From the NCBI GenBank assembly GCA_965218095.1, contig OZ244587.1, forward strand, positions 1,440,001-1,504,000: a DNA stretch of 64,000 bases, read 5' to 3'. Below are positions 3,494-38,423 of this stretch, in pieces (within the stretch, counting starts at the first letter, position 1; every line of letters starts with the position of its first letter). The stretch is from Candidatus Poribacteria bacterium. Lineage in GTDB: Bacteria > Poribacteria > WGA-4E > PCPOR2b. The translations under genes and the position numbers were made by a program. Under the pieces are notes generated by a model that was given only the letters and a program-made list of their open reading frames with translations, had not been told where the DNA came from and searched no databases.

Positions 3494-4420
3494 TCAAGCC
3501 TTCGGAAGCGCCTCAAGCACCTGTGCCGCGATGTTCAATCCCACCTGTTCGCTCCAGGCTTTAGTTAGGCGTTTCCACAGCGGGCCCGGCTCGCCATTCC
3601 CGATGGGCAGTCCGTTGACGCGCGTCGCGGGACAGATGCCGAATGGGGTGCTGGAAAGGAAAGCTTCGTCCGCGTTGATGACGTCGTAAACCTGCAGCTC
3701 TTGCTCTCGAAATGGCATCCCAAGCTGTTTGGCGAGTTCAATAACCACCTTTCGACTGACGCCGGGAAGAATATTGCGGAGCGTCGGCGAGTAAATCGCC
3801 CCTTCTTTGCAGATCAGGATGTTCGCGCCCGAGCACTCGGTGATGTTTCCCTCAAGGTCCAGAAGAAGTGAAGTGGCTTTGGGGTCCACCAAGTGGGTTT
3901 CGCGGTCTGCCAGGTGCCAATGCAGGCGGCTTCGATACTTAATCTTCGGGTCGAGACACTGCGGAGGAATATGCCGAATGCTTGGCGTGATCAGATGGTA
4001 GCCATCTCGCATCGGTTCAGTATAGTATGAAAAATCCAGCGGAAACGTGTGGATGCACACCGTCGGGCGGTTTTCGGCTTCAGTGAGTGGCCGTCCAGCA
4101 TAGAGGGGGACTTTCCCTGCCGTGACAAAGTGGATGAGACCCAGCTCTCCATCGGGAGCTACCCCCTGTCTGTTTTCCGCTGCAAGTCTCCTGGAAATCT
4201 GAGCCATCTCCAGCTTTTCCAGCCCTGGATCGATGCCTGTATAAGCTAACGACGCATAGAGCCGATCTAGATGATCGTCCAACCGGAACAGTTCCTGGCG
4301 GTAGGTCCGCGTCATTTCAGTGACAGTCGCGCCTATGACGATTCCCTTGTCGTAGATAGGAATAGCGGCTTGCGACACGGGGGGCCACTCTCCGTTAAGG
4401 TAAACACGCGGTTCGTTCAT
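3494..4420 (-). CDS. class IV PLP-dependent aminotransferase (branched-chain/D-amino acid type)
   Basis: FRLDDHLDRL, KIKYRSR, ITECSGANI, ILPGVSR, ADEAFLSST; ATG at 4420. Confidence 0.88.
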   Translation of the reverse strand: MNEPRVYLNGEWPPVSQAAIPIYDKGIVIGATVTEMTRTYRQELFRLDDHLDRLYASLAYTGIDPGLEKLEMAQISRRLAAENRQGVAPDGELGLIHFVTAGKVPLYAGRPLTEAENRPTVCIHTFPLDFSYYTEPMRDGYHLITPSIRHIPPQCLDPKIKYRSRLHWHLADRETHLVDPKATSLLLDLEGNITECSGANILICKEGAIYSPTLRNILPGVSRKVVIELAKQLGMPFREQELQVYDVINADEAFLSSTPFGICPATRVNGLPIGNGEPGPLWKRLTKAWSEQVGLNIAAQVLEALPKA

Positions 4421-32590: not shown

Positions 32591-32785
32591 TTATTTCCTT
32601 TCTAAGGTGGCAACTTGGGTTAATCTACCATTTCTCAAATCCGTCATTTTGGATCGAGTCATTCCCCGATTTTCAATCAGGCGATTGATCTTTGATGCTA
32701 GTTTGACTTTAGCCAATTCTTCATCAGGATTGGGGAAACCTAAGTCCTTAAAGATGTTTCCTGAACTGATTGTATAGTCTGCCAT
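32591..32785 (-). CDS. XRE-family HTH/antitoxin-like protein, probably internally deleted or truncated
   Basis: SSGNIFKDLGFPNPDEELAKVKLA motif of HigA-like HTH proteins; short. Confidence 0.6.
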   Translation of the reverse strand: MADYTISSGNIFKDLGFPNPDEELAKVKLASKINRLIENRGMTRSKMTDLRNGRLTQVATLERK

Positions 32786-32845: not shown

Positions 32846-33631
32846 TCATAGCTCCCCCTCACCATTTGCCTGTGAGTTAAGGAAGTTGTCAATTTCTTTC
32901 AATAACGTCGTCTTCTCCGTTTCATAATTGGCGATGATGTCCTCCGGGATTGATCTGTTATGTGCCACGCAATTTCTCAACTGCTCAATCCACTCGACTT
33001 GATTCTCTAAACTTGCCAAAAAATCAATGTATTGCTTTCCTATGATCGGATTGCAATCGTTGAGCTTTTTATACTGCCTGAACACTAAATGAAAGAACTC
33101 ATTTTCATAAGACTCATTCATCAGTTTTGCAGTACGTCGTGGAGGGGGGGTAACAGGATCAATATTGGTCTCGTTTAAGAAGTCGTAAAAATCTTTGCCA
33201 TAGGTATCAATGAAAATCAGGGAAAGGGCTTCTCGTAGTTTCATTTCGATTTCAAAGATTTCTTTTCCGTAATCACGAAGCGTGCGCTGCAATTGTGGAT
33301 CATTCAGTTTCAGCAGATGCTTGATCCTTTCGTCAGTGCAATCCGCAGTGCAATCTGCTACGAATTCGCTGAAGTTGTTGATTAAATCTTCCATTTGTTC
33401 CTCTGCGCTATCAAATGTTATCGAAAATCCGCAGGTCCAGCGACCATCTTCTCGTGTCGTGGTGTGGCGGATAGTAATATGCTGCTCTAGTTCCTCGACT
33501 CCCGGCGGTTCATCGTCGATAGCTGCCAACGCACTCTTTAACATTTCCGTTAAAAGTTCTATCAACCCCATCTCACCAGATAGACCGATCTCGCTAGAAC
33601 ATACAACAAGGTAATCTACCGTCACGGACAT
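32846..33631 (-). CDS. hypothetical protein with HEPN (Swt1-like) RNase motif
   Basis: EIEMKLREAL helix and LRNCVAHNR (RxxxxH) motif. Confidence 0.65.
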   Translation of the reverse strand: MSVTVDYLVVCSSEIGLSGEMGLIELLTEMLKSALAAIDDEPPGVEELEQHITIRHTTTREDGRWTCGFSITFDSAEEQMEDLINNFSEFVADCTADCTDERIKHLLKLNDPQLQRTLRDYGKEIFEIEMKLREALSLIFIDTYGKDFYDFLNETNIDPVTPPPRRTAKLMNESYENEFFHLVFRQYKKLNDCNPIIGKQYIDFLASLENQVEWIEQLRNCVAHNRSIPEDIIANYETEKTTLLKEIDNFLNSQANGEGEL

Positions 33632-33632
33632 C

Positions 33633-34970
33633 TCAGGATACCTCCCTGCTCAAAAGCTGTGCTTCAAATTGTGCCTTCGCGGCTTCCCATTCCTCCGTGG
33701 CTTCTTGTTTGAGTTTTTCCGCTTTCGTGAGGCGTTGTTTGACGTCTGCAACGATTTCGTTTTGAACCTCAATCGGTGGAAGAATAACCTTTAGGGATTT
33801 CAAGGCTTTATAGTCCAGAGCGGGGCGAGTTCCACCCGTCACTTCCCTAATTGCCAGAGATCTACCAAGTTCAGAGTTAAGAAAAGCCGCAACATAATGC
33901 GGGTTGATATTGACGTTTGCAATTTGTTCTTTAAGATGGAATCGAACAGAGTGCTGATTTATATTCCCTTCAAAGTTATCCGGTACAACCGAGACGCTCC
34001 CGATTCGCCCTGTTATCGTAAACACCAGATCATCTTTTTTAAGTTGCGAACGACAAAGCATTCCCTCATGAACTTCTCTCTTGATGAACTTTGCATCACT
34101 CAAATCAATTCCCTGACTTGTAACATTTTGGACTCTCAAAAACGGGATACCAGATGAATCTGTGTAATAATCTTCGTCCACCTTTGGAGTGACTCCAGTA
34201 GAGATGTCTCTTATCAACATGCCCAAATTGAAAACATCAGACCGTGCACTTTCAACGATTTGGTCAATGGTTCTAAATTTGGATTGGTAGTAATACGAAT
34301 CAACCCGCCTCCCCACCGTTTCATTGGCGCGAACCGCAAAGCACTTCTTTTCCTCAACAACCGGCATCTCAATCCCCAATTCCGCCAGCACATAACCATC
34401 AATTGAATTCAAAAGCGTGTCCGCCTCTTTTAGTTTCTGCTCTCGTGCTTTTCGTGCCTCTTGCATCTGTGAAACAAGAGCGTGCTCAAATTCTACCTTG
34501 GGGATTTGAACCGAAGCAACATCTTCAGTTATAATTTTACCCTGGACCTGTCCGCTTTGGTTTCTCTCAAGTTGAAGTGCTCCTAGAGTACTGGACAGGA
34601 AGAACTGGATATAGGTTGGATCAAGATCAGCAACCCGTCGAATCGCAATCAGATTCGCTGATATGTTCCAAACTGGATAGGTTGAAGGAATAACAGCAGA
34701 GATTCCAAGTGTACCCCGCTGGGATATTACGAGATCACCTGGTTTGACCTGCGTTGAATTTAGTGAATTCGCTTTTTTCTCCGAAAGAAAAATGAGTGCT
34801 TTTTCATCGATCGTGCCTTCCATTGTGATGTTTGAAATACGGACAAGAGGAATGCCAGTCTCCTGATATTCGGCGGAAGTGATAGCTGACCCAAATGGAC
34901 CGCATATAACTTCCGAATAAAAATCAAGGCGTTGGATGTCTGGAAAGCGTCTCCGAATCTTGTTTATCAA
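33633..34970 (-). CDS. restriction-modification specificity (HsdS-like) subunit with two TRDs; reading frame extends to 35075 and is probably reached by -1 frameshift
   Basis: GPFGS..GIPLVRISNI and GVTP..GIPFLRVQNV TRD starts, LPPIEVQNEIV, coiled-coil spacers; TTG start lacks an RBS. Confidence 0.85.
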   Translation of the reverse strand: MINKIRRRFPDIQRLDFYSEVICGPFGSAITSAEYQETGIPLVRISNITMEGTIDEKALIFLSEKKANSLNSTQVKPGDLVISQRGTLGISAVIPSTYPVWNISANLIAIRRVADLDPTYIQFFLSSTLGALQLERNQSGQVQGKIITEDVASVQIPKVEFEHALVSQMQEARKAREQKLKEADTLLNSIDGYVLAELGIEMPVVEEKKCFAVRANETVGRRVDSYYYQSKFRTIDQIVESARSDVFNLGMLIRDISTGVTPKVDEDYYTDSSGIPFLRVQNVTSQGIDLSDAKFIKREVHEGMLCRSQLKKDDLVFTITGRIGSVSVVPDNFEGNINQHSVRFHLKEQIANVNINPHYVAAFLNSELGRSLAIREVTGGTRPALDYKALKSLKVILPPIEVQNEIVADVKQRLTKAEKLKQEATEEWEAAKAQFEAQLLSREVS

Positions 34971-35021
34971 GATCTGATATTTTGGAAGATGGTAATGGTA
35001 ATCTGCCCGTTTTGTTACTTC

Positions 35022-35081
35022 GCCCCGCCGAACCGCAAAGTGCTGTAGCTCTCCCTCAGCGGCGGGGCTTAGACGAAAAAA
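35022..35081 (-). other. candidate programmed -1 ribosomal frameshift signal
   Basis: mRNA T_TTT_TTC (35081-35075), spacer GTCTAA, stem GCCCCGCCG/CGGCGGGGC (35068-35060 with 35030-35022). Confidence 0.75.
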
Positions 35082-36874
35082 GGTTCGGGATTCTTTTCAA
35101 ATACCCGGTACTGCCTCACCACCTCCGGGAGTTGATTCTCAGTTTCACGTCCGGTGGCGTTATAGCCAATCAACTCCGGTGCTGCCATGAAAATGGCTTC
35201 GTCGTCGCTCAGCTTCTCACCGTCGTCGCGTCTGCGGAGAAAAACGATGCTCGCTTTTACGCCCGCCCCGAAATGGGCAAAGGTCATTTGTGGTAGGCTT
35301 ACGATGGCGTTAATCTGGAAACGTTCCAACAGAAAGTCGCGTACCTCTTGCAGCGAGGAGTTAGTTAAAATTCCGTCGGGTATGATGACGGCTGCACGTC
35401 CGGTGCCGGGTTTGAGAAAATCCCAGATACGTTCAATAAAGAGGATCTCGGTCCGCTGGTTTTTGCGAGGTCTCTTGTGCCCGGCTTTATTCATCTGATT
35501 CCCCAACTCATAGTCCTCAAGATAGGGGTGTTCAGACAGTGACACCTTTGCCCCGAAAGGTGGGTTTGTCAAAATCAGGTCAAAGTACCCTTCTTTGAAC
35601 TCGTTGTTACCTGTTCTCTCACGGATGCGGTCGAACTCTTGCAGTGCGTCTGCGCTGATGACGTTGGTGTGACCGTCGTCGTGGAGAATCATGTTCATTT
35701 TAGCAACGCGTGCAATCTCTTCGTTGACCTCAATCCCGAAAAGCTGATCTTTAGCGAAATCATGCCAATGCTTAGAACGTTTTCCTTGATCGTCGTGATA
35801 ATCCTTTGCTCCTTTGCGAACATCGTTGAGTGCATGGAGTAGGAATCCACCCGAACCGCAAGCTGGATCCAATACGCGTTCATAGTGTTGGGGCTGCATC
35901 ATCTGGACCGCAAAATCAATGATTTCCCGCGGGGTGAAATACTGACCGAAATGGCCCTTGAAAAAGCCGTCCATAAACGTTTCAAATGCCAACCCTTTTG
36001 TATCAAGATCTGTGTCGGAGAGGTTAATCCCCTCAATGTGGGAGACAATGGTGCGGAGTGTTGGGGCGTCGATCTTGATGGTATCGGTGAAAACATCAGG
36101 TTCCCTCCGCTGCTGCACCTCATAGATTGACCGGATGCGCTCGTAGAGTTTGCTACTCGGCTCATGTGTCTTAATCTGAAATTCGTAAGGTTCGCCCTTT
36201 TTCTTATTTACTTCGTCATTGATTTTGACGAAGATAATTTTACACAGCTCGCCGAAAGCCTCGGGAGGCGAGAGTCTACCGCCTCCCCAAAGGGTCTGAT
36301 GGCATTTCTTGATCGTAGCAATGAGCACCTCTTTGGTGACATCGGAAATATCGTTTTGGGTTCCTTTCCAAAAACGGAATTTCTCCGGTTTACCATACTG
36401 TTGGGGAAGGTCTGCGACGATATTCGCCTCGCGTTCAAGAATCCCATATTTCGGAGAGAAATCGAGGAATCGCCGTGTCTGACCGGCGACCACCCCAACA
36501 AAGTTTGCACGAAACTTGGCCCATGCGCCGTTGCCACAAGCCTGCTCAACCGCTTGATCGAATTCCGAATCGGTGATGTCATCGCGCTTGCACTCAATCA
36601 CGGCATAGGGACGCTTCCGTTCGTCATCGCGAAAAACGACCAGATCAGCGATGTCCCTCGGGGTCCGGTCAGGCACCGTTACTTCAACCCGGATACGGTT
36701 CGGTTCATAGCCGTAGCGGTAGATTAGTTCCGCCCAATATTCCGCTCTAACTTTCTCTTCGGGGTCAGCGTATTTTTCTGTGCGGTTAATCGCAACATAG
36801 GTAATCTTTTCAGCGTTCCCCTTGCCCGAAAGATGTGCATCTCCATTTTTAAGTGCTTTCTCCAAGTAGGTCAT
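35069..36874 (-). CDS. fused restriction endonuclease (HsdR_N-like) and N6-adenine DNA methyltransferase, type IIB/IIG-like
   Basis: EEKVR...ADLVVF...VIECK PD-(D/E)xK core; GQYFTPR, LDPACGSGGFL (motif I), TNPPFG (motif IV). Confidence 0.92.
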   Translation of the reverse strand: MTYLEKALKNGDAHLSGKGNAEKITYVAINRTEKYADPEEKVRAEYWAELIYRYGYEPNRIRVEVTVPDRTPRDIADLVVFRDDERKRPYAVIECKRDDITDSEFDQAVEQACGNGAWAKFRANFVGVVAGQTRRFLDFSPKYGILEREANIVADLPQQYGKPEKFRFWKGTQNDISDVTKEVLIATIKKCHQTLWGGGRLSPPEAFGELCKIIFVKINDEVNKKKGEPYEFQIKTHEPSSKLYERIRSIYEVQQRREPDVFTDTIKIDAPTLRTIVSHIEGINLSDTDLDTKGLAFETFMDGFFKGHFGQYFTPREIIDFAVQMMQPQHYERVLDPACGSGGFLLHALNDVRKGAKDYHDDQGKRSKHWHDFAKDQLFGIEVNEEIARVAKMNMILHDDGHTNVISADALQEFDRIRERTGNNEFKEGYFDLILTNPPFGAKVSLSEHPYLEDYELGNQMNKAGHKRPRKNQRTEILFIERIWDFLKPGTGRAAVIIPDGILTNSSLQEVRDFLLERFQINAIVSLPQMTFAHFGAGVKASIVFLRRRDDGEKLSDDEAIFMAAPELIGYNATGRETENQLPEVVRQYRVFEKNPEPFFV

Positions 36875-37665: not shown

Positions 37666-38423
37666 ATGCGGCTGAAAGATAAGGCAGCCATTATCACCGG
37701 TGCAGGTAGAGGCATCGGTAAAACAACCGCAATTCGCTTTGCGGAGGAAGGGGCGAAGGTTGTCGTTGATGACGTGAACCCAGAGATTGGAAACGCAACT
37801 GTCGAGCAAATCATTCCACAGGTGGAGAGGCGATTTTTGTTCGTGCAGATGTCTCGTCTCAGGAGGAAGTGGCGGCGCTTGTTTCGGGGACAATCGAAAC
37901 CTTTGGGCAGGTGAATGTTCTAGTCAACAACGCGCTCTGCTCGACGGAGGATGTTGTCAACAACAATTGGGACGCTAACTTGAACGTTGCGCTTCGCGGC
38001 ACAGATTTATGCTCGCAGGCCGTGATTCTAGAGATGCAAAAGATTGGTGGCGGAAGCATCATCAATATCGCGTCGGTCAATGGGTTAATCGGCTTGCAAG
38101 GCATCCACGCCTACGCCGCCGCCAAAGGTGGGGTCATTTCGCTGACCCGATCACTGGCGGTGTGGCATGGCAGAGACAATATCCGTGTCAACTGTATCTG
38201 CCCCGGCACCATTCAAACGGAAGTGTGGGAGCCAATCATCGCAAAGAATCCGCAGATCTTCGACGAAATCACGCCCTGGTATCCACTTGGTCGGATCGGG
38301 AAGCCGATTGACATTGCGAATGCCGCGCTGTTCCTTGCGTCTGACGAATCTTCGTTTGCAACCGGGGCAACATTCGTGATTGACGGTGGACTCACGGCGG
38401 GATTACATCGGTTTCCGTTGTAG
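37666..38423 (+). pseudogene. SDR family oxidoreductase, one frameshift near 37815
   Basis: TGAGRGIG in the first ORF; LVNNA, YAAAK and VNCICPG in the second; junction restores [12 protein letters not shown]. Confidence 0.82.

Follow-up and report, generated by a model that had tools for sequence, protein, structure and literature searches.

How is the specificity part of a restriction-modification enzyme translated when its reading frame has no evident start of its own? The question is raised by a locus on the minus strand of a 64,000-nucleotide stretch of a Candidatus Poribacteria genome (contig OZ244587.1, positions 1,440,001 to 1,504,000; here called the window, with positions counted from its first letter). 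There, a gene coding for a nuclease and a DNA methyltransferase in one chain (RM) is followed, in the -1 frame, by an open reading frame (ORF) for an HsdS-like specificity part (S). Comparison of this locus with its homologues makes it very probable that the two frames are joined by programmed -1 ribosomal frameshifting, which would yield RM alone (601 aa) and its fusion to S (1080 aa).

The RM ORF of the window ends gaa cct ttt ttc gtc TAA, and the elements around this end are listed in Table 1. Most ribosomes would read CCU UUU UUC GUC and stop at UAA, releasing the 601-aa RM. A fraction would be delayed by the GC-rich hairpin lying 6 nt past the heptamer, and the two tRNA-Phe would slip one base back on U_UUU_UUC; reading would then resume at CGT (35075-35073) and continue in the -1 frame, via a short linker, into the specificity part with its two target recognition domains (TRDs). 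The predicted fusion comprises 600 RM residues plus 480 more, with the junction peptide ..NPEPFFRLSPAAEGELQHFAVR, and S, lacking its own start, would be produced solely in this fused form.

The -1 frame is closed by a TGA five codons 5' of the heptamer and is then open for 482 codons, until the TGA at 33635-33633. Its first ATG, GTG or TTG is the TTG at 34970, 35 codons past the two Phe codons, and no Shine-Dalgarno (GGAG-like) motif is seen 5' of it on direct reading of the window. The two halves of S are internal repeats (BLASTP between the halves, E 1e-15), and the alignment between them begins at ELQHFAVRRGE, 27 residues 5' of the TTG. A start at the TTG would therefore cut into the first repeat unit, and this codon is probably an internal Leu codon. 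A sequence-only reading of the window had described the heptamer, the spacer, the GC stem, the -1 phase, the open S frame and the TTG without a Shine-Dalgarno motif, and had added that the 35-codon extension resembles the segment before the second TRD; every one of the observed details is correct in the window, and the resemblance is borne out by the alignment of the halves.

Table 1. Features of the restriction-modification locus, in positions of the window.
Feature	Position	Strand	Description
RM gene	35069..36874	-	601-aa ORF, the 0-frame product; N-terminal PD-(D/E)xK nuclease plus N6-adenine DNA methyltransferase
Slippery heptamer T_TTT_TTC	35075..35081	-	X_XXY_YYZ, in phase with the 0 frame
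Spacer GTC TAA	35069..35074	-	6 nt; includes the 0-frame stop codon
Putative stimulatory hairpin	35022..35068	-	47 nt, GC-rich; starts 6 nt past the heptamer
Outer stem, 5' arm	35068-35060	-	GCCCCGCCG
Outer stem, 3' arm	35030-35022	-	CGGCGGGGC
-1 frame ORF	33633..35081	-	482 codons; linker FFRLSPAAEGELQ, then HsdS-like part with two TRDs
TTG, start expected from a gene caller for S	34968..34970	-	27 residues inside the TRD1 repeat unit
Third gene	32846..33631	-	261 aa; starts 1 nt past the S stop (TGAgATG); weak Abi_2 match below the Pfam cut-off

The domains of the encoded proteins are best explained by a Type IIB-like restriction-modification operon. RM matches the Pfam families HSDR_N_2 (residues 38-108, E 2.5e-12) and N6_Mtase (residues 291-572, E 7.9e-40). 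In the 119 listed RM homologues, which are 70-94% identical, the nuclease residues D77 and E94 are invariant and K96 is present in 118; the methyltransferase motif DPxCGSGGF occurs in all 119 (third residue Ala in 105, Ser in 14) and the Asn of NPPF in 116. Among solved structures, RM is nearest in sequence to the Type IIB enzyme RM.BsaXI (E 4.6e-39), at an identity that is low and over the central part only (residues 154-551). The S part matches Pfam Methylase_S and the PADLOC Specificity_I models. Two other assignments were considered and rejected. The MADS system (MAD2/MAD5) falls far below the NCBIfam cut-offs (MAD2 292 bits against 720, MAD5 105 against 400). A classical Type I system (HsdR, HsdM, HsdS) would include a helicase-like HsdR motor gene, and no HsdR-like ORF lies within ~5 kb on either side of the operon, the genome elsewhere not having been searched for hsdR; the nuclease motif on the M chain itself also counts against membership in that class.

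The end of the RM chain is highly conserved among these homologues. In 111 of the 119 it reads Phe-Phe-x-stop (x being V in 93, G in 10, A in 6, F in 1 and L in 1), and the remaining eight are six longer ORFs running into an S-like part, one truncated ORF and one ending PYFL. A scan of species-representative genomes (genome_contigs) gave 49 homologous loci, 45 of which carry the arrangement NNT TTT TTY NNN stop together with a long -1 S frame, here called the cassette. The other four comprise L031, whose contig stops short of the site, L047 and L052, in which RM is truncated, and L045, a hard fusion. In the genome of the window, 6.35 Mb in length, the cassette pattern occurs once and a reversed control pattern not at all. 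Within the phylum of the window, 176 genomes were scanned, and the pattern was found in 40 against 8 for the reversed control; 28 of the 29 loci inspected have an RM with the C-terminus ..ENPDFF(G/A/S/P)-stop and, behind it, S in the -1 frame, and their hairpins differ in sequence (GCCCTGATAGG/CCTATCGGGGC).

The carriers of the cassette are taxonomically diverse. By their record titles, the 49 loci include Planctomycetota, Opitutales, Chloroflexota, Nitrospira, Oscillospiraceae, Ruminococcaceae, Synergistales, Abditibacteriaceae, Hydrogenedentota, Lentisphaerae, Pelobacter, alpha-, beta- and gamma-proteobacteria, cyanobacteria, Nitrospinota and Zixibacteria, and cultured carriers among them are Tepidimonas sp. 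HKU77, Caldimonas caldifontis BCRC 80649 and Ruminococcaceae bacterium HV4-5-B5C. An exact 19-mer turns up in metagenomes as well, where at least 120 stretches have it, including contigs from human gut, soil and groundwater; counts refer to 80 of these stretches, for which the 19-mer itself was the search key. In 72 of the 80 the RM frame is at least 500 aa long or open to the contig edge, and 57 of the 64 complete -1 ORFs reach at least 440 aa. The 19-mer has no match in viral contigs, and a protein search of a plasmid collection gave no close relative (3317 records, all below 60% identity, the best full-length one at ~30%). Two loci (L014, L117) have a -1 ORF of 738 aa in place of the usual ~470, which seems to hold an extra C-terminal S part.

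The metagenomes also contain a distant RM subfamily (L105, L138, L142, L152, L156) with an identical heptamer, spacer and stem start. Its 0-frame ORFs are 736-761 aa long where complete and end ..G(K/Q/R/E)xSFFV or ..QQPFFV, and its S begins FFRLSPD(L/Y)(N/D)E. Judged from sequence comparison, the signal is thus conserved where the flanking protein sequence differs.

The composition of the heptamer was counted in 46 cassettes (the window plus the 45 loci), and the hairpins and start codons in 74. The heptamer is TTTTTTC in 43 and TTTTTTT in three of the 46, and it is in phase in 45 of the 45 genome_contigs loci with a separately ending RM. The codon before TTT ends in T in all 46 (CCT 37, TCT 3, GAT 2, and CAT, CGT, AGT and CTT), although T makes up only 17% of third positions across these genes, and the first Phe codon is TTT in all 46, against a background of 39%. 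The regular expression that located the sites required these bases, so the real test is that every locus with a separately terminating RM matched it. The hard-fused L045 has CTC where the separately ending RM loci keep a T before TTT. The spacer codon is GTC in 37 of the 46, and the stop is TAA in 34, TGA in 8 and TAG in 4. Heptamers of the form H_HH.U_UU.Y are reported to be among the most efficient -1 motifs in Escherichia coli (PMC4066793). No Shine-Dalgarno-like element 5' of the heptamer is conserved across the cassettes.

A hairpin follows in all 74 cassettes, at a distance of 6 nt from the heptamer in 72 and 7 nt in two. These hairpins have 10-27 bp and folding energies of -15 to -48 kcal/mol (median -24). 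For covariation, 51 of the 74 cassettes were aligned, with near-duplicates and those having extreme loops excluded. The paired cells amount to 84.5%, against at most 55% when the 3' partner is slid; 7 of the 11 stem pairs vary on both sides, the closing pair being GC in 40 and CG in 11, and pairs 7-9 having CG, UA and AU alternatives. Compensatory cells number 90, against 36.5 +/- 8.9 in shuffles, and none of 500 shuffles reaches 90, figures which are not probabilities, since the sequences are related. A first alignment gave covariation in the same direction with weaker numbers. RNAalifold on that first MAFFT alignment retained five pairs because bulges shift the register between lineages, and per-sequence folds with counts over the named structure were used instead. 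The earlier reading had proposed to check the conservation of the heptamer, of the spacer, of hairpin covariation and of the -1 phase of S: the 45 of 49 genome loci, in which the 6-nt spacer with the stop is kept too, and the stem pairs varying on both sides speak in its favour. It had also named what would speak against frameshifting, namely homologues that are all fused or that have an independent ribosome-binding site and start for S; the homologues are not all fused, and no start or ribosome-binding site for S is conserved among them.

Several observations weigh against this reading. Much of the conservation is due to descent, the loci not being independent. The hairpin of the window (-27.2 kcal/mol) is ordinary given its base content (z -1.53, with 17 of 200 shuffles folding equally well), and being unexceptional alone, it leaves the case for non-chance to rest on conservation. 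In 20 of the 74 cassettes an in-frame ATG, GTG or TTG precedes the conserved (R/K)RG motif, the other 54 having none. The run of six U could itself support slippage by RNA polymerase, giving the same protein. Lastly, in three loci from the scan of the phylum, L063 and L064 (T7) and L074 (T8), one extra T puts RM and S in one frame.

The start codons lead to the explanation that S is translated alone, either by reinitiation once ribosomes have terminated at the RM stop or from a start close to the hairpin that is weak or non-canonical; the T-run would then reflect a conserved Phe-Phe C-terminus, and the hairpin would serve mRNA stability, processing or coupling. Native coupling of this kind is known from the EcoKI hsdM and hsdS genes (PMC3510504), the hairpin loop of the window contains a purine-rich GAGGGAGAG, and in L015 (Oscillospiraceae; 4339-4351) the spacer is GTA TGA, with an S-frame ATG that overlaps the RM stop in an ATGA-type arrangement while heptamer and hairpin are retained. 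In L015 coupled reinitiation and frameshifting could operate side by side, and independent or coupled initiation of S is possible in this and other start-bearing lineages. As an account of the family, however, independent translation of S is improbable. The first in-frame ATG, GTG or TTG lies anywhere from codon 3 to codon 78 across the 74 cassettes, with no conserved position; in 15 of the 20 the early start is a GTG that coincides with the conserved Val of CFAV, a codon that is GTT, GTC or GTA elsewhere; and the window itself has no ATG, GTG or TTG for 35 codons, nor any in frame after its purine-rich stretch. A need for Phe-Phe, moreover, leaves unexplained both the T before TTT, kept over 7 different codons, and the choice of TTT as the first Phe codon.

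The coding of the -1 frame between heptamer and first start points the same way. The trans-frame peptide FFRL(S/T)P..CFAV(R/K)RG(E/D) is conserved across the cassettes, its RL(S/T)P beginning right at the heptamer, and across FAVRRGE column variability is highest at the third positions of the -1 frame, 5' of any start codon. S therefore appears to be under coding constraint from the heptamer onward, with no conserved start, as programmed frameshifting would have it.

The same fusion protein would also arise by transcriptional slippage, if RNA polymerase added one U on the U6 run, and in the T7 and T8 loci one extra T yields just that fused frame. Efficient transcriptional slippage in bacteria needs runs of ~8-9 or more, however, and the run here is six. 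The preference for TTTTTTC, which ends the run at six, over TTTTTTT (43 to 3), the conserved spacing of 6 nt between heptamer and covarying hairpin, and the unvarying X_XXY_YYZ phase, are marks of ribosomal frameshifting, and slippage by the polymerase is accordingly given little credence.

A further explanation holds that the split is damage or error, either a pseudogene of a once-fused RMS gene or a long-read homopolymer miscall. The genome is a single 6.35-Mb contig, an SDR gene in the window (37666-38423) is frameshift-split as well, and fused relatives exist. Against this, contigs of three public runs (X1, X2, X4) span the T6 run ungapped, with no indel listed at the site. The X1 contig is identical to the window over 34921-35256, and contigs ~90% identical to the window cross the site in all three runs; this evidence consists of assembled contigs rather than raw reads, and the source sample may be X1 itself. 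One RNA run covered window positions 34400-34547 only. The T6 run on which the sequence-only reading depended is thus carried, at the contig level, by independent contigs, and a T6 run plus stop recurs in 45/49, 25/28 and 79/80 loci of unrelated assemblies (the 19-mer being the search key in the last). Damage or error is very hard to reconcile with these counts and is considered the least probable explanation of the split.

Natural fusions of the two parts are found among the relatives, and they bear on how the predicted product would look. One-TRD in-frame fusions of 831-839 aa are 72-74% identical to the RM of the window, and two of them (P0085, P0107) have 13 residues between NPxP and CFAV, which is the spacing in the predicted trans-frame product. 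Two-TRD single chains of 1054-1225 aa occur among distant relatives (42-54% identity), and some of these read ..DFFVKAPLCFAVGRGE, which equals the 0-frame reading of the cassette with Lys replacing the stop. L045 reads CTC TTT TTC A GT GTA AGC, that is, a cassette with one base inserted after the heptamer, its first T and its stop being absent. A 1210-aa protein (P0123) is recorded for L074, as the product of its fused frames, and the T7 and T8 loci may be either a natural switch to the hard-fused form or a long-read homopolymer error. Given these natural fusions, a joined RM-S protein appears viable. A strict rule, by which a two-TRD S would be frameshifted and a one-TRD S hard-fused, was rejected, as exceptions exist in both directions. 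A contig in X1 and X2 matches the window along the RM end up to the heptamer (window 35073) and then diverges; translated, its divergent part reads like the in-frame one-TRD fusion P0106 (FFVQLGITPPQK). This suggests module exchange at the conserved junction, whereby the same RM would be joined to different S modules.

What purpose would such a site serve? By analogy with known enzymes, frameshifting may set a 2:1 stoichiometry of RM to S. One fusion plus one free RM would be the equivalent of the (RM)2S unit of BcgI and BsaXI, and the shift rate would set the ratio of the subunits. The idea derives from published precedents. BcgI is A2B (PMC4027205) and BsaXI is (RM)2S (PMC11997821), in agreement with the statement of the earlier reading that Type IIB enzymes such as BcgI use two RM per S. 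Single-chain RMS enzymes have one catalytic unit per recognition unit, TstI being a homotetramer (PMC4027205). An engineered EcoKI M-S fusion ("Type IMS") is active in vivo and in vitro requires added free M (PMC3510504). Weighing against the idea, the -1 ORF is of one-TRD size (190-320 aa) in 8 of 70 complete cassette loci and in 2 of 64 complete metagenome loci, and two-TRD hard fusions exist without a free RM.

The locus shares features with each of these systems and differs from each. In BcgI and BsaXI, too, one RM chain combines an N-terminal nuclease with an N6-adenine methyltransferase, and the specificity part is HsdS-like with two TRDs; these enzymes are described, however, as separate RM and S polypeptides, whereas S here apparently has no independent start. 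The single-chain enzymes TstI, AloI and HaeIV have the R-M-S order of the predicted 1080-aa product, and the system described here would additionally supply free RM. In the EcoKI "Type IMS" enzyme the frame offset between M and S was removed, and the active fusion requires extra free M in vitro; fusion plus free M is the mixture that the proposed site would make naturally. That fusion was obtained by mutagenesis, however, and native EcoKI has a 1-nt overlap, translational coupling and a separate HsdR motor subunit.

Comparable sites are known outside restriction-modification. The tau and gamma forms of dnaX are a case in which -1 slippage in a cellular gene sets the ratio of two protein forms within one complex, the same ratio-setting role that is proposed here. 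With dnaX, slippage gives the shorter product and is aided by an upstream Shine-Dalgarno-like element, whereas in the present case the shifted product would be longer and no such element was found conserved. The IS3/IS911 transposases (OrfA and OrfAB) combine a heptamer with a downstream structure and a 0-frame stop right after the site, and their shifted product fuses the upstream protein to a downstream frame without a start codon to itself; the heptamers of IS elements include U_UU.U_UU.C (PMC4066793). The present site differs in belonging to a chromosomal restriction-modification enzyme, in having a simple long hairpin and in that its two products are proposed to co-assemble.

Programmed -1 frameshifting in bacterial chromosomal genes is limited to a handful of cases, most examples being from insertion sequences and phages (PMC4066793). 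Literature searches, whose scope lay outside subscription journals and REBASE, found no report of frameshifting in restriction-modification systems, in line with the remark of the sequence-only reading that none was known. The available text of the BcgI and BsaXI papers (PMC4027205, PMC11997821) makes no mention of it, nor do the available parts of two genome-wide frameshift surveys (PMC3711429 and PMC4066793, supplementary tables aside), a large review (PMC5009743) and a 2025 preprint (10.1101/2025.10.02.679949); earlier notice of such a case may nevertheless exist.

The genes around the operon are housekeeping genes, coding for a cobalamin adenosyltransferase, an SDR protein, an HTH protein, an aminotransferase and GcpE. 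The third gene of the operon has no PADLOC or NCBIfam match, and among loci L009-L087 homologues of it stand behind S in L044, L045, L063 and L064 only; some of these systems may use it as an accessory partner. A 64-aa ORF with an HTH_37 domain (32591-32785, minus strand) lies directly downstream of the three-gene operon and might be a controller-like regulator or an unrelated antitoxin-type gene. The split SDR gene, on the plus strand, consists of overlapping ORFs of 82 aa (covering the family's N-terminal part) and 184 aa (the rest), with the frame change near 37810-37825 and no long homopolymer there. Either a genuine frameshift mutation or an assembly error of one base is responsible, and the case bears on the indel quality of the one-contig genome.

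The present analysis points to a textbook-quality frameshift site within a widespread defence enzyme. Gene callers assign S a wrong, truncated start (the TTG in the window), and the databases name the RM/S pair a "type I M protein" plus S. When the two genes are cloned apart, the S expressed would be a form which nature may never make. The cultured carriers make the site readily testable. Frameshifting, if confirmed, would explain the link between the two-chain and one-chain Type IIB architectures; the TstI and BcgI studies contrast both forms and refer to "difficulties inherent in" the 1:1:1 stoichiometry of a single chain (PMC4027205). A broader reading, for which the balance of evidence is only slightly favourable, extends the mechanism to the whole clade, across many phyla and in carriers from soil, groundwater, sponge and gut metagenomes. 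In that case S would exist only as the trans-frame C-terminus of RM-S, the shift rate would be tuned to the (RM)2S assembly, and a change from T6 to T7 or an inserted base would switch the system to its hard-fused form. Such a clade would provide, as far as the searches show, the first known instance of a defence enzyme built by recoding.

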